A DNA stretch of 7,513 nucleotides, taken from positions 1 to 7,513 of IMG/VR virus record IMGVR_UViG_2609460344_000015. One strand, 5' to 3'. Under the pieces are notes generated by a model that did not search any database, had not been told where the DNA came from, and was given only the letters and a program-made list of their open reading frames with translations. Below, piece by piece: positions 1-7,513 of this stretch. A program made the translations under genes and the position numbers. Positions within the stretch are counted from its first letter, which is position 1, and every line of letters starts with the position of its first letter. This stretch comes from a virus. Its lineage: Duplodnaviria > Heunggongvirae > Uroviricota > Caudoviricetes.

Positions 1-38
1 ATATTTCAGCTGGCGAATAATATCCGACAGTAATCACT

Positions 39-61
39 CTGCGCAATAGCGCGGCCTTTTT
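39..61 (+). terminator. Possible small intrinsic terminator upstream of the esterase gene
   Basis: Stem CTGCGC (39-44) / GCGCGG (49-54) with one G-U pair, AATA tetraloop, then CC + TTTTT (57-61). Short stem; the context upstream of position 1 is not visible. Confidence 0.25.
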
Positions 62-163
62 CGTATTGCGGGCTGTTGTCTATCTTCTGCCATTATCCTG
101 TAACTTCCGGACTTCAGCCCGCTCCTCATTTTACTCACAATATTATCCAGGCCGGGAGGATTC

Positions 164-2124
164 ATGGCATTTAAACACTATGACGTGGTCAGGGCGGCGT
201 CGCCGTCAGACCTTGCGGAGCGACTGACACAAAAACTGAAGGAGGGGTGGCAGCCATTTGGCAGTCCGGTGGCCATCACGCCTTATACCCTGATGCAGGC
301 CATTGCGGCGGAAGGTGATGTCACCACACCTGTGGTGGTGAAGCCGTCGGATGGAGAAGGCGCAGTTATCAGCACCACCAGCAACTCGGAGTATTACTTT
401 GTTGTTGCCCTGGCCGGGCAGTCAAACGGTATGGCGTATGGTGAAGGGCTTCCGCTGCCGGAGACATATGACCGTCCGGACCCGCGCATTAAACAGCTGG
501 CGCGTCGCAGCACTGTCACGCCGGGTGGTGCGTCCTGTAACTACAATGACATTATTCCTGCGGACCACTGCCTGCATGATGTTCAGGATTTGAGTAAGTT
601 TTCACACCCGAAAGCCAGCGCAGCTCAGTATGGATGCGTGGGGCAGGGATTACATATCGCGAAGAAATTGTTGCCGTTTATTCCGGCGAATGCCGGTATT
701 CTTCTGGTTCCGTGCTGCCGTGGTGGTTCTGCATTTTTGGCGGGCGATGAAGGTACCTTCAGCGAATCCACCGGCGCAAGCGAGACCTCGGCACGCTGGG
801 GTGTAGATAAGCCACTGTACAAGGACCTGCTTACCCGTACTCAGGCCGCACTGAAGGCTAACCCTAAAAATATTCTGCTTGCAGTGGTCTGGATGCAGGG
901 CGAGTTTGATTTGAAACAGGGTGCATACGCCACTCAGCCGGGGCTGTTTGATTCCATGGTGGAAAAATATCGTTCTGACCTGTCGGAATTCGGAGGTCAG
1001 TGTCTCGGGGGCTCTCCGTCATCGGTTCCCTGGATTTGTGGCGACACGACCTACTACTGGAAGCAGACTTATTCTTCGCAATACGATGCGGTGTATGGTG
1101 CATACAAGACGAAATCCGCAAAAAAAATCTTCTTTGTGCCGTTTAGACGGATGAAAACGGGCGAAATGTGGGTACCAACGAGCCGTCAGAAGATCCGGAT
1201 GTTGCGGATATTGGGTATTACGGAGCCGGTGGTCGAACGGACGCCAAAACCTGGACGACGGCCGACCGTAAAACGCATTTTGGATCATGGGCACGTCGTG
1301 GGATTATTTCCGACCGTCTGGCAACGGCGATTCTTGTGCATGCCGGGAGAACCGCTGAATTCATTACCGGAAAACAGCCTGATACGGTGAAGCCCACCGG
1401 ACCTTCCGGTGAAGGTACGGAGAGAGAGCCGGAAGCCCCGGTCAGTAACCGAACCCTGATGAGTCTGCTGGCGTCCGGCGAAGACCTGGCATCACAGGGC
1501 TGGCGCTATTATCACAAACCGGCGAGCGGAGACAATGTTAACAAAAACATTGCTGAAGCGGTGGTCAGTGATGCGGGGGCTACGGGAGGTAAGGCCCTGC
1601 AACTGAATAAACCGGAAAACCACATCTGGTTTCTGGAGCATGATGCAGCCGGACAGGGAGTGGAGTTACTGAAGAAGGGGGGACGTGTGAGCGTACGGTT
1701 TAAGTTGCCGGGTTCACTGGTGCCGAATCGGTTTGCCCTGGGCATTTACTGGCAGTTGTCGTCCCTGCCGGAGGGAGTGACGCTGGCAGAGGAAGGCAAC
1801 GACATGCTGATGTCCTTCTTCCTGCAGACGGATGCGACGAACCTGAACGCGATGTACCACAAGAAGCCGAATGCGAAGCTGGATACGTTCGGGGTCTTTG
1901 ATAACGGATGGCACACACTGGCTTTTGAGTTTGCCGGAAACAACAGCATTCAGGTGACGCCGGTACTGGATGAGAAACGGGGGACGCCGTTCACACTGGT
2001 GAAATCTCCGGCATCAGGGGCGGCGGACAAACTGCAACTGACAGGCATATCAAAGGCGGCGACATATACGCTGCTGATTGACAGTGTGAAGGTGGAAGTG
2101 AACAACGCGGATGCCGCGGCATGA
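164..2124 (+). pseudogene. nanS-p: Prophage sialate O-acetylesterase (NanS-p / SASA family) split by a single-nucleotide frame break near 1145-1150
   Basis: SD GGGAGGA 153-159, ATG 164. N-terminal ORF (164..1390) contains the GQSN catalytic motif (FVVALAGQSNGMAYGEG) typical of SASA/SGNH esterases. Protein-like translation continues in the frame of ORF 1168..2124, which has TAG at 1144-1146 just upstream, while the 164 frame becomes Arg-rich nonsense until its stop at 1388-1390. The two parts sum to about 650 codons, matching my recollection of about 645 aa for intact prophage NanS-p. Confidence 0.7.
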
Positions 2125-2133
2125 TAAAAAAAG

Positions 2134-2162
2134 CCGCCAGCGGCAGGAACGGAAGCTGGCGG
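2134..2162 (-). terminator. Hairpin oriented as a minus-strand intrinsic terminator just downstream of the esterase stop
   Basis: 8-bp GC-rich stem CCGCCAGC (2134-2141) / GCTGGCGG (2155-2162), 13-nt loop; A7 at 2126-2132 on + gives a U7 tract after the hairpin on the - strand. No U-tract follows on +. Confidence 0.35.
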
Positions 2163-2259
2163 AGGTAATCCCAATGGAGAATGTAAAGAAAAGATGCTTT
2201 CGTATATCGGTTTTTTAAATGAAAGCAGTTCTCATTGTCAACCATAACGGTAAGAAACT

Positions 2260-2442
2260 ATGACATTTATTCATCAGGTGATGCTGTACTTCTGTACGGC
2301 GGTCTGTGTGCTGTATCTTCTTTCGGGTGGGTACAGGGCAGTGCGCGATTTCTGGCGCAGGCAGATTGATAAAAGGGCCGCAGAGAAAATCAGTGCCAGT
2401 CAGTCAGCCGGAACAAAACCCGAAGAGCCTCTCATTCCGTAG
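2260..2442 (+). CDS. Hypothetical small membrane protein (60 aa)
   Basis: ATG 2260 preceded by weak SD (taAGAAAct); translation has one hydrophobic helix (IHQVMLYFCTAVCVLYLLSGGY) then a charged tail. Not recognised by me. Confidence 0.4.
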   Translation: MTFIHQVMLYFCTAVCVLYLLSGGYRAVRDFWRRQIDKRAAEKISASQSAGTKPEEPLIP

Positions 2443-2479
2443 CAACTTTCTTAACAACACCTTTCAACGAGAAAATACC

Positions 2480-2749
2480 ATGTCAGAAATAAAATCGCTG
2501 GTCACTGCTGAAGCAGTGAAGGAAGTCCTGCGCTCTGAAGAAGTCAGAAGCGCACTGAAACAGCAACTTCGGCAGAACCTTGAGGCGCGTCTTGATGCAG
2601 AAGTGGATGCCATTCTGGATGAACTGCTGGGCGCACCGACTGTTCCGGAGCCGGAAGGCATTGCGGATGACAGTGCTGTTTCAGATGGCGTCGGGTCTCA
2701 GCCTGATGGTAGCAGTGAGCCTCAGCCTGACGGCGAAATGATGATGTAA
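2480..2749 (+). CDS. Hypothetical acidic protein (89 aa)
   Basis: ATG 2480 in frame with listed ORF 2306..2749; the upstream extension overlaps ORF 2260..2442 so the internal ATG is preferred. Translation MSEIKSLVTAEAVKEVLRSEE... is a helical N-half followed by an Asp/Glu/Pro/Ser-rich tail. SD is weak (GAGAAAA). Confidence 0.5.
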   Translation: MSEIKSLVTAEAVKEVLRSEEVRSALKQQLRQNLEARLDAEVDAILDELLGAPTVPEPEGIADDSAVSDGVGSQPDGSSEPQPDGEMMM

Positions 2750-2824
2750 CCATGCGCAGGGGCTGTCGGTGTGAGCTGATGCCCCTCTTGTTGTTGTGAG
2801 CTTCCGGATTGCGGGAGACGGGGT

Positions 2825-3040
2825 ATGTACCAGATGGAAAAAATCACAACAGGTGTGTCATACACCACGTCAGCGGTGGGAACGGGCTACTGGTTCCTGC
2901 AGTTGCTGGACAGGGTTTCCCCGTCTCAGTGGGCGGCAATAGGCGTGCTGGGGAGTCTGCTGTTTGGTCTGTTGACGTACCTGACGAACCTGTATTTCAA
3001 AATCAGAGAGGACCGTCGTAAGACGGCACGGGGAGAGTAG
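2825..3040 (+). CDS. S: Class II holin, phage 21 S-like (pinholin type), dual-start motif
   Basis: 71 aa; starts MYQMEK with Met1 (2825) and Met4 (2834); SD GGGAGA 2813-2818. Two hydrophobic helices and the C-terminal FKIREDRRK...RGE tail that I recall from phage 21 S and Stx-phage holins. Confidence 0.9.
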
Positions 3041-3043
3041 GTG

Positions 3044-3124
3044 ATGAACCATGAAGAAATGAATCAGCGCTTCAGTCGTCTGGAAAATGAAATTGCTGAA
3101 CTGAATAAAAACTGTCGGCGCTGA
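3044..3124 (+). CDS. 26-codon leader ORF translationally coupled to the downstream moron gene
   Basis: Good SD GGGGAGAG 3031-3038 overlapping the holin stop, ATG 3044; encodes MNHEEMNQRFSRLENEIAELNKNCRR; its TGA (3122-3124) overlaps the ATG (3124-3126) of the next ORF. Confidence 0.3.
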   Translation: MNHEEMNQRFSRLENEIAELNKNCRR

Positions 3125-3600
3125 TGCCTTCTGAAGATGAAAAAAAACGCCGCGATGAGCAGTTTGCTGCGTTTGACGATTATTGTCGGAAAGTGATGAG
3201 CAGAAATCTCGCAGAGTGTTTCAGTATTCATAATGATAATTTCAGTGAGCTGGAATGGGAGTGTAACCGGCCATCCTTTGTTGTATCCGGTGATGCTGGG
3301 AAAATAACCATCTCAGAAAATGGGAAAGTAACACCTCCATCGCACCAGCACAGTGAGGAGCTCATTGAATTTGCCATTGATTACCTGAAGAACAATAAAA
3401 AGCAGGGGCTGATGAAGCGCGTTGGCCGTTGCATGGGATATCTTCAGGTAGCCGCTGAGATTGAAGCGCTGGCCAGTGGTGCTGATAAGGATGCAATTGT
3501 GCGGGAGGCTCTTCTTCGTGATTTTAATACTCCACCCTTTAAAAAAGTGCCGGCTTACTGGCTTCATCCGGGGCTGACTTATCTTAAAGTGCGTATTTAG
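3124..3600 (+). CDS. Hypothetical protein (158 aa), moron between holin and endolysin
   Basis: Uninterrupted ORF, no own SD (appears coupled to the leader ORF), no predicted membrane helix by eye, visibly lower GC than flanking lysis genes. Function unknown to me. Confidence 0.6.
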   Translation: MPSEDEKKRRDEQFAAFDDYCRKVMSRNLAECFSIHNDNFSELEWECNRPSFVVSGDAGKITISENGKVTPPSHQHSEELIEFAIDYLKNNKKQGLMKRVGRCMGYLQVAAEIEALASGADKDAIVREALLRDFNTPPFKKVPAYWLHPGLTYLKVRI

Positions 3601-3636
3601 TGGGCCAGGGACAGCGGCTGAATATTTAATATATCC

Positions 3637-4170
3637 ATGAACACCAAAATCAAATACGGCCTGTCGGCTGCCGTTCTGGCGCTGATTGCCGCTGGTGCGC
3701 CTGCGCCTGACATTCTCGACCAGTTTCTGGATGAAAAGGAAGGTAACCACACCACGGCATACCGTGATGGCGCGGGTATCTGGACCATCTGTCGCGGTGC
3801 CATTCTGGTGGATGGTAAACCTGTCGTCCCGGGCATGAAGTTGTCGAAGGAGAAATGCGACCAGGTTAACGCCATCGAACGTGATAAGGCGCTGGCATGG
3901 GTGGAGAAAAACATCAAAGTGCCATTGACCGAACCCCAGAAAGCGGGGATCGCGTCATTCTGTCCGTACAACATTGGTCCCGGTAAGTGTTTCCCGTCGA
4001 CGTTTTACAGACGAATTAATGCTGGTGATCGCAGGGGAGCATGTGAGGCGATTCGCTGGTGGATTAAGGACGGTGGCAGAGACTGCCGTATTCGTTCAAA
4101 CAACTGCTACGGTCAGGTATCCCGTCGTGACCAGGAGAGCGCGCTGGCGTGCTGGGGTATCGACAGATAA
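3637..4170 (+). CDS. R: SAR endolysin (phage lysozyme, GH24 muramidase, phage 21 R-like)
   Basis: 177 aa; N-terminal signal-anchor-release segment YGLSAAVLALIAAGAPAP followed by the lysozyme catalytic region EKEGNHTTAYRDGAGIWTICRG (Glu-Asp-Thr triad pattern). Pairs functionally with the pinholin upstream. Confidence 0.9.
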   Translation: MNTKIKYGLSAAVLALIAAGAPAPDILDQFLDEKEGNHTTAYRDGAGIWTICRGAILVDGKPVVPGMKLSKEKCDQVNAIERDKALAWVEKNIKVPLTEPQKAGIASFCPYNIGPGKCFPSTFYRRINAGDRRGACEAIRWWIKDGGRDCRIRSNNCYGQVSRRDQESALACWGIDR

Positions 4171-4260
4171 GCAGAATATTTTGCTGAAAAATAAGGCATG
4201 GCCACGCGGGCGGATAACATGAAATCCTGCGAACTGGCGAAACGTAAGTGAATAAAAGTA

Positions 4261-4299
4261 AAAACCCCGTTTGTTGGCAGCAAGCGGGGTTTTGTTTTT
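4261..4299 (+). terminator. Rho-independent terminator between endolysin and the small-ORF array
   Basis: Stem CCCCGTTTG (4265-4273) / CAAGCGGGG (4281-4289) with one G-U pair, 7-nt loop, flanked by AAAA (4261-4264) and followed by TTTTGTTTTT (4290-4299). Confidence 0.7.
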
Positions 4300-4364
4300 A
4301 TGGCAGTAAGCTATGGGAGGCTGCCTTGATTGATTTTAGCAAACTGATTAGGGAGTTGCGACTC

Positions 4365-4460
4365 ATGATTAGTCAATTACCAAACTGGAAATTTTTGCTG
4401 GTCTGGAGCATCCCTTTTTTATGGGTAGTATCCCAGTTAATTGTGGCAATTAAGGGGTAG
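4365..4460 (+). CDS. Small hydrophobic peptide P1 (31 aa)
   Basis: SD GGGAG 4351-4355, ATG 4365; MISQLPNWKFLLVWSIPFLWVVSQLIVAIKG is a single predicted TM helix. Lies in an AT-rich stretch. Confidence 0.3.
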   Translation: MISQLPNWKFLLVWSIPFLWVVSQLIVAIKG

Positions 4461-4462
4461 CT

Positions 4463-4594
4463 ATGTCAGACAAACTCATAACGCCGGCAAAGGTCCTGTG
4501 TGTGATTGTCGGTATTTCATTTTCACTAATGCTGGTTGCTCTTTTTCTGTCCCTCGCCTGGGTGATGTTGTCTTCGTCGGGGCTGCTGGGGTGA
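4463..4594 (+). CDS. Small hydrophobic peptide P2 (43 aa)
   Basis: SD AAGGGG 4452-4457, ATG 4463, starting 2 nt after the P1 stop; MSDKLITPAKVLCVIVGISFSLMLVALFLSLAWVMLSSSGLLG has one long TM helix. Confidence 0.4.
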   Translation: MSDKLITPAKVLCVIVGISFSLMLVALFLSLAWVMLSSSGLLG

Positions 4595-4596
4595 CA

Positions 4597-4713
4597 GTGA
4601 CTGATGACATCAGCAGAGCGCTGGCTTTTGCTATTAAGTGGGTGGCTGTTGGTATTGCTGTGTCTCCGATGCTGTATGGGCTGGCTAAACTGGTCATTGC
4701 GCTGAAATCGTGA
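4597..4713 (+). CDS. Small hydrophobic peptide P3 (about 38 aa, GTG start), paralogue of P4
   Basis: GTG 4597 (alternative GTG 4591 overlapping the P2 stop); VTDDISRALAFAIKWVAVGIAVSPMLYGLAKLVIALKS. Aligns with P4 across the N-terminus and helix. Start codon uncertain. Confidence 0.3.
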   Translation: MTDDISRALAFAIKWVAVGIAVSPMLYGLAKLVIALKS

Positions 4714-4724
4714 ACTTTAAAAAG

Positions 4725-4811
4725 ATGAGTGCTGAACTTATTCGGGCAATGGCATTTGCCATTCGTATTGTGGCCATTGCTGTTCTGGTCTGGGCAATCC
4801 GTTGGTGGTGA
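4725..4811 (+). CDS. Small hydrophobic peptide P4 (28 aa), paralogue of P3
   Basis: ATG 4725; [28 protein letters not shown]; stop TGA 4809-4811 lies 1 nt before the Rz ATG 4813. SD weak. Confidence 0.3.
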
Positions 4812-4812
4812 T

Positions 4813-5280
4813 ATGAACCGTGTTCTGTGTGTGGTGATTATTGTCCTGCTGGTAGCCTGTGGTGTGCTTAGTCTGGGGCTGAATCATTACCGCGATAACG
4901 CCATCACCTACAAAGCGCAGCGCGATAAAAAAGTCAGTGAGCTGAAACTGGCGAATGCCACTATTACTGATATGCAGCAGCGCCAGCGCGATGTTGCTGC
5001 GCTCGATGCAAAATACTCGAGGGAATTAGCCGATGCGAGAGCTGAAAATGAAACTCTGCGTGCTGATGTTGCCGCTGGTCGTAAGCGCCTGCGGGTCAAC
5101 GCCACCTGCCCCGGTACCGTGCGTGAAGCCACCGGCACCTCCAGCGTGGATAATGCAACCGGCCCCCGACTGGCAGACACCGCTGAACGGGATTATTTCA
5201 TCCTCAGAGAACGGTTGATGACAATGCAGAAGCAGCTGGAAGGGGCGCAGGAATATATCCGCACTCAGTGCCTGAAATAA
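4813..5280 (+). CDS. Rz: Rz i-spanin (inner-membrane spanin subunit)
   Basis: 155 aa; N-terminal TM helix then [16 protein letters not shown]...[16 protein letters not shown]...[24 protein letters not shown], closely matching lambda Rz as I recall it. Listed ORF 4729..5280 is an upstream GTG extension; ATG 4813 gives the lambda-like N-terminus. Confidence 0.9.
5033..5218 (+). CDS. Rz1: Rz1 o-spanin (outer-membrane lipoprotein spanin), embedded in the +1 frame of Rz
   Basis: 61 aa; lipoprotein signal with lipobox LVVSAC, Pro-rich mature part [32 protein letters not shown] matching lambda Rz1 as I recall it; entirely inside Rz. Confidence 0.85.
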
Positions 5281-5322
5281 GTTTTGTTGATGCGCCGTAT
5301 CGTCGCTGTATTCCCTCATTAA

Positions 5323-6227
<905 letters not shown>

Positions 6228-6234
6228 GGAGGTC

Positions 6235-6843
6235 ATGGTGGATAAGGGAAAAGAGATTATTGCAGTACGAAATGCAGCCTGCAACGAATACGGCGGGATA
6301 AACTGTGAGGTGCAGTTTGAAGATGCGGTCAATGAAAAAGGAGAGCAGGTATGGCTGCCGTATACCGCAACGGAAACGGATAATACAGAACACGGAAAAG
6401 CCTTGTGGTCGGGGCTGACAGCAGGAACATACGGAAGTGTGAGTGCCTTTGTTGCCACGGAAGCAATACTGGAAGCGGCAAAGGCGGCGAAAAGGGAAGA
6501 GATTAATATCTGGCGTGATGTGCAGGAGAATATGGAATACGTGATGGAATTCAACGGAAGGAACTGGGATTACGGCAAGAAGACGTTGTCCAGGATAAGC
6601 ACGACACGACTGATGGCAGAGAACAACCGTCTTCCGGAAGGGTTTGCCTGGACGGACGGGGATAATAATGTGGTGCCGGTAACGGCGGCGGAGATAATTG
6701 CGCTGGCAGATGCGACAGAGCAGGCGATGTTTGCGAAAGGTGTGGAGATTAATACACGTCAGCTTCAGATGAAAGCAGAGGTTGAGGCGCTGACAGAGCT
6801 GAAGGCGATCCGCAGTTATGTTGTCGGATGGCCTGCAAGCTGA
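6235..6843 (+). CDS. tfa: Tail fibre assembly protein (Tfa / Caudovirales tail-fibre chaperone family)
   Basis: 202 aa, immediately downstream of the tail-fibre gene; SD AGGAGG 6227-6232 overlaps the upstream stop (spacing to ATG 6235 is short, GTG 6238 is an alternative). Contains LPEGFAWTDG, resembling the LPENFTWLSPGG motif of lambda Tfa as I recall it, and a C-terminal ...VVGWPAS like the EWP ending of Tfa proteins. Confidence 0.65.
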   Translation: MVDKGKEIIAVRNAACNEYGGINCEVQFEDAVNEKGEQVWLPYTATETDNTEHGKALWSGLTAGTYGSVSAFVATEAILEAAKAAKREEINIWRDVQENMEYVMEFNGRNWDYGKKTLSRISTTRLMAENNRLPEGFAWTDGDNNVVPVTAAEIIALADATEQAMFAKGVEINTRQLQMKAEVEALTELKAIRSYVVGWPAS

Positions 6844-6845
6844 GT

Positions 6846-6873
6846 AAAAAAAACGGGACCACGGCCAGTCCCG
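6846..6873 (-). terminator. Intrinsic terminator for the minus-strand ykgJ-like gene (also caps tfa on +)
   Basis: Stem CGGGAC (6854-6859) / GTCCCG (6868-6873), 8-nt loop; A8 at 6846-6853 on + becomes a U8 tract directly after the hairpin on the - strand. On + only a weaker T-run follows (6884-6889). Confidence 0.5.
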
Positions 6874-6987
6874 GAACCATGAGTTTTTTAGGGTATTAGT
6901 TTGTTATCATAATTAGCGTGCTAAGTATGCCGTATCAGGCTGATTAGTGAAGTGATGTTGTTCGCATTTTTGCACGGCGGAGAATAT

Positions 6988-7317
6988 TCAGATTTTGGGA
7001 AATCCATATTTTTCCCGTGCGCGGTTACATGCTTCATTCGCGATGCCATTTTCGCCGGACATTGCGAATTCCCTGCATGTGGACGGACGGTTTTTGTAAA
7101 CAGAGCAATATGCGTTTTCACCGGGGGGGCCGGCCAGAGCGACACATCGGGGATTTTTCTGATTGGTGCCGCGCATACAGCGATGAAAAGGAGATATTTG
7201 CTCAGTGAGACTGACCGGGACGTTTCCGCCAGCATCATCGGCTTCAGCCCAGTAAAAAGAGACGCGGAAAAATGCACAACAGGCACCACACGTCATGCAT
7301 GGATTCGGATTGTTCAT
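6988..7317 (-). CDS. ykgJ: YkgJ-family cysteine-cluster protein (CxxCxxCC putative zinc/iron-chelating domain), chromosomal
   Basis: Minus-strand ORF; from the internal Met the product [31 protein letters not shown]... is 109 aa with the CxxCGxCC signature. The 19-codon upstream extension to ATG 7374 ([13 protein letters not shown]...) is encoded by a U-rich hairpin and looks non-coding. No clear SD at 7317, so the start is not certain. Confidence 0.7.
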
Positions 7318-7334
7318 TTTTATACTATTTGTTG

Positions 7335-7370
7335 TTTTTTCAGCGATCAGATAAAAGGGCGCTGAAAAAA
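7335..7370 (-). promoter_or_regulatory. Hairpin in the probable 5' UTR of the ykgJ-like gene
   Basis: 11-bp inverted repeat TTTTTTCAGCG (7335-7345) / CGCTGAAAAAA (7360-7370) with 14-nt loop, 18-53 nt upstream of the chosen start on the - strand. Confidence 0.3.
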
Positions 7371-7387
7371 ACATTCTCCAAAATTAG

Positions 7388-7393
7388 ATTATA
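7388..7393 (-). promoter_or_regulatory. Candidate -10 hexamer (TATAAT on - strand) for the ykgJ-like gene
   Basis: Reverse complement of 7388-7393 is a perfect TATAAT with G at -14; no good TTGACA-like -35 at 16-18 bp spacing. Sequence match only. Confidence 0.3.
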
Positions 7394-7415
7394 ACTATTT
7401 GATTTTATGGATAGA

Positions 7416-7449
7416 GGCATGCTTTTTACGAAAAAGTAAAAAGCATGCC
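7416..7449. promoter_or_regulatory. Perfect 12-bp inverted repeat (GGCATGCTTTTT / AAAAAGCATGCC) with 10-bp spacer upstream of the ykgJ-like promoter region
   Basis: Arms at 7416-7427 and 7438-7449. Sits where a -35 or activator site would be for the candidate -10; could be an operator or the terminator of the upstream minus-strand gene beyond the window end. Confidence 0.4.
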
Positions 7450-7513
7450 AAATTTGCCATTAACTCTTTGAATATTCAGCACTAATCATCTATTTCGGTT
7501 GCCTTCTTATTCA

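Follow-up and report, generated by a model that had tools for sequence, protein, structure and literature searches.

Between the endolysin gene R and the i-spanin gene Rz of a lambdoid Escherichia coli prophage lies an interval of 642 bp (positions 4171-4812) that holds a non-coding spacer, a hairpin terminator, a leader and four small open reading frames, here called ORF1 to ORF4. All positions refer to the window, that is, the whole stretch of 7,513 nucleotides analysed (IMG/VR virus record IMGVR_UViG_2609460344_000015, positions 1 to 7,513), which represents a decayed prophage with a lysis cassette of the phage-21 type. Parts of the interval find matches in 2062 of 5426 complete E. coli genomes, and the PGAP annotation already places three or four 'hypothetical proteins' there. 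The genes have been annotated before, their function unassigned; the platform on which they are mounted, with a hairpin in first place, is undescribed. The GC content of the interval is 0.46 (0.385 in ORF1) versus 0.55 in R and Rz, as expected of acquired DNA.

An earlier note on this DNA had drawn attention to ORFs at 4365-4460, 4463-4594, 4597-4713 and 4725-4811, and all four are present as listed. They are indeed tightly packed up to Rz, with the ORF4 stop codon (4809-4811) 1 nt before the Rz ATG (4813), and the two Shine-Dalgarno-like (SD) sequences that had been pointed out, GGGAG (4351-4355) and AAGGGG (4452-4457), are both found. Each peptide contains one hydrophobic stretch (19-residue Kyte-Doolittle maximum 1.9-2.9), in keeping with the single membrane helix that had been predicted for it.

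Three families of small membrane peptides

Judged by their sequences, the four ORFs are genuine genes for uncharacterised tiny membrane peptides, which fall into three families (phrog_6632, phrog_4906 and phrog_1115/4493). The region contains five hydrophobic ORFs of at least 25 amino acids (aa), against a maximum of four in 2000 mononucleotide shuffles. Conservation of the frames and the ratio of nonsynonymous to synonymous divergence (dN/dS, or omega) had been named in the earlier note as a check; in relatives the frames are kept, and all three families are under purifying selection (dN/dS 0.07-0.57). Profile-profile comparison detects no homology among the three families, nor with the transmembrane (TM) domain of Rz. 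The peptides had not been recognised at first sight, and this still holds: searches of Pfam and NCBIfam yield zero family matches, no PADLOC family matches either, and the PHROGs concerned are of unknown function. No paper on these ORFs was found in the literature by protein accession, location phrase or topic, and none of the peptide strings occurs in the 15 supplements of a small-gene Ribo-seq paper on O157:H7 Sakai.

ORF1, a member of phrog_6632, encodes in its long form 44 aa from a TTG start on the plus strand (4326-4460). It is made of an N-terminal domain, MIDFSKLIRELR.M, which is predicted to be cytoplasmic, and one TM helix. The ORF had been taken to begin at ATG 4365. The frame stands but not this start, since homologs point to TTG 4326, 5 nt after the SD GGGAGG (4315-4320), and ATG 4365 is an internal, invariant Met14. 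Homologs are 44-45 aa long and open with the same MIDFSKLIRELR.M, the best conserved portion; residues S5, K6, L7, I8, R9, E10, R12, M14, L18, W21, K22 and F23 are invariant in the family. Between lineages the codons at I8 (ATT/ATA/ATC), R9 (CGG/AGG/CGC/CGA) and K6 (AAA/AAG) vary synonymously only, which argues that the N-terminal domain is translated. Met14 has its own SD in every lineage, spelled by different codons (GGGAG in E. coli, GAGGTG in Pseudomonas). For the family, dN/dS ranges from 0.17 to 0.57; between the Enterobacter copies there are 3 synonymous differences and no nonsynonymous one. The family reaches Salmonella, Citrobacter, Enterobacter, Klebsiella and Providencia, and always lies about 37 nt behind the same hairpin. 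A 70-aa PGAP model that starts at GTG 4248 and runs through the terminator is taken as over-extended, as is a 51-aa model of ORF3.

ORF2 (plus strand, 4463-4594; 43 aa, a single TM helix) belongs to phrog_4906. This family is found only in E. coli and in Shiga toxin (Stx) phages. It comprises about 60 protein clusters, all from E. coli, of which 42 are exactly 43 aa long; identity within the family is as low as 62%, and its members share the core CVIVGISFSLMLVA. A 72%-identical copy differs from ORF2 by 27 nucleotides and zero indels, and dN/dS is 0.35 in frame versus 0.69 and 2.0 in the shifted frames. In the Stx phage P27, the ORF2 homolog lies directly before Rz, after an Ant-like gene. The motif VLCV, shared with Rz, raised the possibility that ORF2 is a duplicate of the Rz TM domain. 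This is ruled out by an hhalign probability of 0.6% over 7 residues when the ORF2 family is aligned with Rz. A lipobox is likewise absent from all the peptides, so they do not resemble spanins on either count.

ORF3 and ORF4, also on the plus strand, represent the third family. In profile searches ORF3 matches phrog_1115, phrog_3246 and phrog_4493, and ORF4 matches phrog_4493 and phrog_3246. The canonical protein is 48-60 aa long, of the form M[RE]KYKRILLRLT-MKNGLE...-TM, and has two in-frame starts, each with an SD. Both window copies are 5'-truncated and retain the TM part only. ORF3 (4591-4713; 38-40 aa, from GTG 4591 or 4597) is the C-terminal TM part of this KYKR family and is fused straight onto the end of ORF2. 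ORF4 (4710-4811; 28-33 aa, from GTG 4710 or ATG 4725) is a truncated ORF3 paralog of the 50-aa ...IRWW subfamily. At its N-terminus a short unrelated stretch replaces the KYKR domain, and over its last 62 nt it matches perfectly the full-length 50-aa form found at one related locus (L085; L numbers designate the loci compared). GTG 4591 and GTG 4710 each overlap the preceding stop codon as GTGA. The ORF3 family occurs in E. coli, E. marmotae and Salmonella enterica. Its TM domain shows 19 synonymous and 8 nonsynonymous differences between E. coli and Salmonella, with omega of 0.07-0.10 in frame and above 1 in the shifted frames; for ORF4, omega is 0.17-0.25. Two of the families have in common two conserved in-frame starts with separate SDs, namely M1/M14 in the ORF1 family and M1/M13 in the ORF3/4 family.

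The hairpin and its leader

A bidirectional intrinsic terminator hairpin (A-tract, GC stem, U-tract) occupies 4261-4299 and forms the 5' element of the cassette. Its stem (4261-4293) has 15 pairs, is followed by a T-run and folds at -21 kcal/mol, which confirms the strong terminator that had been proposed after R. It is regarded as bidirectional because an A-tract also precedes the stem. The hairpin is kept in every R-Rz variant. Across 17 lineages, 5 of 12 stem pairs show compensatory changes and the core pairs are unbroken throughout; the stems differ in sequence from lineage to lineage (CCCCGTTTG/CAAGCGGGG, CCCCGACTG/CAGTCGGGG, CCCCAACTG/CAGTTGGGG, CCCCCGAGAGC/GGCTTCGGGGG and others).

The leader follows at 4300-4325 and carries the SD of the TTG start. 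Other lineages have a distance of 35-42 nt (about 37 nt) from hairpin to start, an SD of the form (A/G)GGAGAA, and a start codon that is nearly always GTG or TTG. When cassettes of different genera are compared, homology starts about 10 nt upstream of the hairpin. The same leader serves either an ORF1-type or an ORF3/4-type gene, at some loci via an upstream ORF (uORF) of 8 codons. At L085, L094, L054 and L064 this uORF (MGREVLSL or MCREVYSL) occupies the canonical leader start, about 25 nt before the ORF3/4-type start, and its TGA overlaps the GTG of the next small gene. This uORF looks like what is left of an ORF1-type start, put to new use in translational coupling. Only the L119 type has a second terminator behind the ORF. 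No plus-strand sigma-70-like promoter was detected in a promoter scan of the window and four other contexts (H-19B, SPN3UB, Enterobacter and L105).

Upstream of the hairpin, a non-coding spacer of 90 nt follows R (4171-4260). Among loci that are otherwise near-identical, 22 of its 90 sites segregate (nucleotide diversity, pi, 0.09), most of all in a hyper-polymorphic block at 4186-4244, and the stretch from hairpin to ORF4 next door is nearly invariant. The spacer can be aligned with the Salmonella and Stx-phage versions. One allele of the 4186-4244 block is a perfect palindrome, CGTTGGCCAACG, and a motif in this block, GCGGATAACA..AAATCC, is kept as far as Salmonella.

An Rfam scan of the window and eight related loci gave nothing above threshold at the R-Rz locus. 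In the window no match to IsrK of Gifsy-1 was obtained, and Rfam 15 should include that RNA. Sub-threshold matches on the minus strand, to the rimP leader (30-36 bits) and ctRNA_pGA1 (32.5 bits), are probably terminator look-alikes. They span the hairpin and spacer at L094 2833-2974, L104 1656-1797 and L123 2911-2993 (all minus strand), and lie on the strand of the antisense RNA proposed below. The enterohaemorrhagic E. coli prophage small RNAs (sRNAs) AgvB and AsxR and the Pas RNAs are ruled out by their location between Q/PR' and the holin gene, outside the interval. Pas-type sRNAs have been described near esterase and holin genes of E. coli prophages (bioRxiv 10.64898/2026.05.13.724894), and such RNAs might lie at 2125-2825 of the window. 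Elsewhere, the sRNA STnc100 scores above threshold upstream of the holin gene in a Salmonella prophage (L094 1653-1860), and an sRNA-Xcc1 match is present in an enterobacterial phage contig (L140 4910-4996).

A recent composite array

The four-ORF array is not ancestral but a recent recombinant pile-up of modules that are found one or two at a time in relatives. A search through Rz recovered 78 loci, which between them show 40 different R-Rz intervals. Behind the hairpin, intervals of 297-298 bp hold one ORF1-type gene and those of 335-336 bp one full-length ORF4-type gene. A long ORF3 is joined by ORF4 in the 438-bp interval, and by ORF2 in the 489-bp interval, where the order is reversed relative to the window. 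The 642-bp interval is the window type with its four ORFs, and intervals of about 1.4 kb (about 1420 bp) hold an extra Ant-like gene or a DNA methyltransferase gene. The complete four-ORF version is present in 589 of the 5426 E. coli genomes (about 11% of complete genomes), always at 99.4% identity or more. All other BLAST matches break at query positions 160/164, 295, 298, 415 and 417, which are the ORF borders.

Within the 642-bp class, pi is 0.046 in R and 0.048 in Rz but 0.0016 from hairpin to ORF4, which is about 30-fold lower. A cassette that is nearly invariant amid diverse R and Rz genes indicates recent spread by recombination into diverse lysis cassettes. The polymorphisms in the cassette (4 synonymous, 4 nonsynonymous) are uninformative on selection, because the array is nearly clonal. 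The earlier note had seen in the array of four a possible accessory module. The genes and the recurrence of their slot bear this out; the array as a unit does not, being a near-invariant composite of separable modules, two of them 5'-truncated.

Occurrence in other phages

Cassettes of this kind are found between endolysin and spanin genes in E. coli prophages, in the Stx1 phage H-19B and in many Stx1a, Stx2a and Stx2c phages, where they are mostly unannotated. The same position is used in Salmonella phage SPN3UB and in Salmonella prophages with an HP1-type holin and lysozyme. Enterobacter prophages combine the cassette with two other holins, a GH19 endolysin and the unrelated short spanins phrog_1026 and phrog_1275. 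The slot is thus shared across several genera with unrelated holins, endolysins and spanins. The ORF1 cassette was also seen in one further enterobacterial context. A role specific to signal-arrest-release (SAR) endolysins, like that of a releasin, is ruled out, since the endolysin that accompanies the ORF1 homolog in Enterobacter, a GH19 enzyme, shows no obvious TM or SAR segment at its N-terminus.

It had been assumed that R abuts Rz in cassettes of the phage-21 type. This is so in K-12 Qin, where rrrQ overlaps rzpQ. It is not so in H-19B, whose R and Rz are annotated as phage-21-like. Its 297-bp gap holds the same hairpin and an unannotated ORF1 homolog.

Two further small ORFs were noticed. 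In Pseudomonas phage YMC11/02/R656 (L105 2674-2790) behind the ORF1 homolog stands an unrelated second ORF, which encodes a 38-aa single-TM peptide and has its own SD, so that tandem small TM ORFs behind the hairpin recur outside E. coli. In Salmonella prophages and SPN3UB (L094 2724-2813; L104 about 1570-1645) a hydrophobic ORF of 24-29 aa with a GWGW motif overlaps or directly follows the lysozyme stop codon, upstream of the hairpin. This would bring the small-peptide families of the interval to four.

Prophage setting

The lysis cassette of the window begins with an S21-type pinholin gene (2825-3040; matches to PF04971 and phrog_9876/20). It is followed by a 27-aa ORF and a truncated 158-aa ORF (3124-3600), which matches only the C-terminal half of phrog_1085 (296 aa); this ORF probably represents an accessory gene that has been truncated, and the stretch 3041-3600 between S and R a second slot for insertions. 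R (plus strand, 3637-4170) encodes a SAR endolysin, a lysozyme of the phage-21 type (Pfam Phage_lysozyme, PF00959, E=1.4e-24; phrog_7) with a SAR-like N-terminus, MNTKIKYGLSAAVLALIAAGA. Beyond the interval, the i-spanin gene Rz (plus strand, 4813-5280; Pfam Phage_lysis, PF03245, E=3.6e-50) has the o-spanin gene Rz1 embedded in it (5033-5218; PF06085, E=1.7e-21).

At the left end of the window (164-2124), a sialate O-acetylesterase gene (DUF1737 and SASA, then DUF6645) is split into the overlapping ORFs 164-1390 and 1168-2124. It resembles a frameshifted gene of the nanS-p type; the homolog in strain CB9615 is a single intact gene of 1851 nt. On the right (5281-7374), Rz is followed directly by a tail-fibre fragment with collagen-like repeats and then by a DUF4376 tail-fibre assembly gene (6235-6843). 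After the latter comes a minus-strand gene with a CxxCxxCC domain. Beyond the tail-fibre fragment the window reaches a host gene. As Rz adjoins the tail-fibre fragment, the head and tail genes must all have been deleted from this prophage.

Possible roles

The account we favour, tentatively and as a little less likely than not, is that the peptides are late-expressed accessory components of the inner membrane with a role in the envelope or in lysis. It is founded on their recurrent position between endolysin and spanin beside unrelated lysis genes and on the precedent of P2 lysA. The conserved platform (bidirectional hairpin, leader of about 37 nt, SD and non-ATG start) would here introduce four genes for small, single-pass inner-membrane proteins. 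Since no promoter was found, the genes would be transcribed only when late lysis transcription, antiterminated by Q, reads through the hairpin. Translation would proceed as a coupled chain that ends 1 nt before Rz, given that each stop is within 0-2 nt of the next start or overlaps it as GTGA. The peptides, non-essential, might then modulate late envelope events, the likeliest targets being holin triggering and lysis timing, or spanin action. In the lysogen, the hairpin may silence them, possibly together with a cis-antisense RNA.

Several observations weigh against a role in lysis. The peptides match no holin family (their PHROG matches are confined to phrog_6632, 4906, 1115, 3246 and 4493, all of unknown function, and Pfam matches are zero) and they are devoid of the charged C-terminal tail typical of holins, their C-termini being of 2-7 residues (...AIKG, ...SGLLG, ...ALKS, ...IRWW) that carry a net charge between 0 and +1. 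Tail genes surround the ORF1 cassette and its hairpin in YMC11/02/R656; the cassette is also found between gpI-like and gpJ-like genes in another phage group, and between the tail tube gene (FII) and a gpE-like gene in a P2-like phage. Some Salmonella have an ORF3-like gene after a tail-fibre assembly gene. The R-Rz slot, for its part, also takes an Ant-like gene and a DNA methyltransferase gene. Location is therefore weak evidence for a function in lysis, and position between R and Rz, which had been read as a pointer to a lysis module, does not prove such a role. The slot is absent from K-12 Qin and from many other cassettes with a related R, so that the genes must be dispensable. Frameshifted copies of ORF2 or ORF3 exist elsewhere (L082, L076 and L093), and the open frames of the truncated ORF3 and ORF4 are no evidence for retained function, in view of the low pi and the equal numbers of synonymous and nonsynonymous changes given above. 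What the sequences do indicate is that the genes are accessory and mobile, always in late operons and in late orientation, and not tied to the lysis cassette.

The same distribution can be read differently. The peptides could be ordinary morons that serve the lysogen (through conversion or exclusion, for instance by blocking the entry of superinfecting DNA, or through membrane physiology) and have no part in lysis, the R-Rz gap being a permissive site. Presence or absence of the slot in close relatives, its use by Ant-like and methyltransferase genes, the ORF1 cassette at classic moron sites in tail operons, the lower GC content and the spread across genera all fit this account. However, morons normally bear a promoter; here none was found, and a strong terminator stands only about 37 nt before the start instead of behind the gene. 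Together with the non-ATG starts, this terminator argues for very low expression in lysogens. Moreover, none of the six canonical peptides matches a PADLOC defence model. On balance a moron function is unlikely, though it deserves to be kept in mind.

A further proposal is compatible with an envelope or lysis role and adds a mechanism to it, namely that the cassette encodes a small toxin gated by antisense RNA, similar to type I toxin-antitoxin (TA) systems. A minus-strand promoter would give rise to an RNA of about 75-100 nt that covers the start codon, SD and leader and ends at the bidirectional hairpin. This RNA would keep a membrane-toxic peptide from being translated except when late transcription supplies a flood of mRNA. 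The candidate promoter is an extended -10-like motif, TGCTAAAAT, on the minus strand at 4333-4341, within codons D3-F4-S5-K6 of ORF1 and facing the hairpin. TGNTAWWWT has only 3 matches in the window, this site being one of them, and TGnTAnnnT is retained in 8 of 8 lineages; in L105, the promoter scan independently picked out the homologous site (TTCGCA-18-TAAAAT with TG). The unrelated ORF3/4 family has TATACT (5 of 6 positions of a -10) in its conserved KYK codons in all lineages; where its start takes the canonical leader position (L033 type), this motif occupies the same coordinates (+8 to +13 relative to the start). Synonymous divergence over the first 13-24 codons is 2-5 times below that in the rest of the gene, and a predicted 76-nt RNA folds at z = -3.2 with the anti-SD CCUCCC in a loop. 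The hairpin itself, bidirectional and covarying, keeps a fixed distance to the ORF in both Enterobacterales and Pseudomonas. The peptides, with 28-60 aa and a single TM helix, have the size and hydrophobicity of type I toxins.

It must be noted, however, that the -10-like motifs coincide with conserved residues (DFSK, KYK), so that selection on the protein could suffice to account for them. The -35 elements are weak, and at this site the scan called no minus-strand promoter in the window, H-19B, SPN3UB or Enterobacter. Rfam gave no antitoxin or sRNA family, no similarity to Hok, Ldr, Ibs, TisB or other toxin families was found, and the peptide gene has, in the contexts scanned, no promoter of its own, unlike the toxin genes of known type I systems. 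Antisense gating is therefore a lead that we hold to be unlikely. Another promoter-like site on the minus strand, at 4469..4440 in the ORF1/ORF2 junction and facing the hairpin (CTGACA-18-CACAAT with TG), was set aside; it is not homologous to those of the other loci and is within chance expectation.

A bolder combination of these ideas, for which we see a rather slim chance, would make the unit of hairpin, leader and non-ATG TM ORF, with its second, internal start, an unrecognised mobile cassette, gated by terminator and antisense RNA, whose long and short products oppose each other like holin and antiholin and so time the failure of the membrane. Lacking a promoter, such a unit would hop between late operons, from Enterobacterales to Pseudomonas, with peptide families swapped onto one platform. 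If this is true, the Stx phages, H-19B and SPN3UB all carry an overlooked gene for lysis control.

It is also conceivable that the array is largely debris from exchange, both illegitimate and homologous, between co-resident prophages, in which ORF1 and ORF2 may be functional while ORF3 and ORF4 are inert and stay open only because the cassette is young. ORF3 and ORF4 do lack the conserved N-terminal domain and the native SD and start. The cassette is near-identical in all 589 genomes, with the low diversity and the few changes already described; relatives with frameshifts exist, and the prophage in the window is itself a remnant. Against this, the truncated ORFs have kept in-frame GTG starts that overlap the preceding stop, the part retained is the TM domain, which is under the strongest purifying selection, and the composite has reached about one in nine complete E. 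coli genomes. We consider debris improbable.

Least of all do we expect the ORFs to be a mere translational leader whose coupling brings ribosomes to the Rz start, with the peptide sequence secondary: the last ORF does always stop 1-22 nt short of where the i-spanin gene starts, the region of the ...IRWW stop also serves as the SD of Rz (GGTGGTGA), and Gifsy-1 orf45, the model for such a leader in front of anrP, has two in-frame starts and acts by coupling (PMC4825925), but amino-acid constraint is strong here (omega 0.07-0.35), orf45 shows the opposite, a conserved nucleotide sequence with variable amino acids (PMC4825925), and the cassette is also present where no spanin follows.

Implications

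Among the phages that encode the peptides are functional ones of medical relevance (H-19B with Stx1, other phages with Stx1a, Stx2a and Stx2c, and SPN3UB), and in most of their records the gene has escaped annotation. Lysis timing sets burst size and, in Stx phages, toxin release, so that an overlooked membrane component would be worth knowing. Whatever its function, the promoter-less cassette with its leading hairpin and exchangeable peptide genes offers a testable case of small genes passing from one phage late operon to another, and also of how a potentially toxic peptide could stay silent in lysogens.

Comparison with known systems

By analogy, the closest functional counterparts would be P2 LysA, the dual-start holin/antiholin pairs and the prophage toxins of the Hok type. 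P2 LysA is a non-essential membrane protein of about 140 aa with several TM helices, whose gene lies between the endolysin gene K and the spanin genes lysB/lysC; the gene is part of a late transcript, and its product probably adjusts when lysis occurs. As here, a membrane protein gene stands between endolysin and i-spanin. The peptides described here differ in having 28-60 aa and one TM helix.

The holin pairs lambda S105/S107 and S21 68/71, the latter encoded in the present cassette (2825-3040), are likewise small, late-expressed inner-membrane proteins of the lysis cassette with dual starts, to which M1/M14 and M1/M13 are candidate equivalents. However, the holin starts are 2-3 codons apart and those of the present families 12-13, and the cassette already has a bona fide pinholin.

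The hok/sok and hokW-sokW loci share with the cassette hydrophobic peptides of less than 60 aa in prophages and, if the candidate is real, a cis-antisense RNA, which here would run from the ribosome-binding site to the terminator. The hokW-sokW locus of the Stx2 phage Sp5 is reported to facilitate release of that phage (PMC8621323). The differences from type I TA systems are that no toxin promoter was found here, that there is no match to an Rfam antitoxin or a Pfam toxin, and that the antisense RNA is predicted.

The lambdoid morons are extra DNA at gene boundaries of late operons in the order promoter, gene, terminator (Juhala et al. 2000, as cited in PMC4104026). Insertion at a boundary, atypical composition, presence or absence in close relatives and sharing across distant phages are all seen in the present cassettes as well. 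In contrast to morons, the cassettes here open with the terminator, which precedes the start by 35-42 nt, and no promoter was detected.

In architecture, the closest analogue is the IsrK-orf45-anrP region of Gifsy-1, where read-through of a terminator enters an ORF of about 45 codons with two in-frame starts and a stop that abuts the next gene (Hershko-Shalev et al. 2016, PMC4825925). Both place a small two-start ORF behind a late-region terminator and against the following gene. IsrK differs in lying downstream of the Q-like gene antQ, in having its own promoter and in acting in trans; moreover, the orf45 peptide is not conserved, whereas the peptides encoded between R and Rz are.

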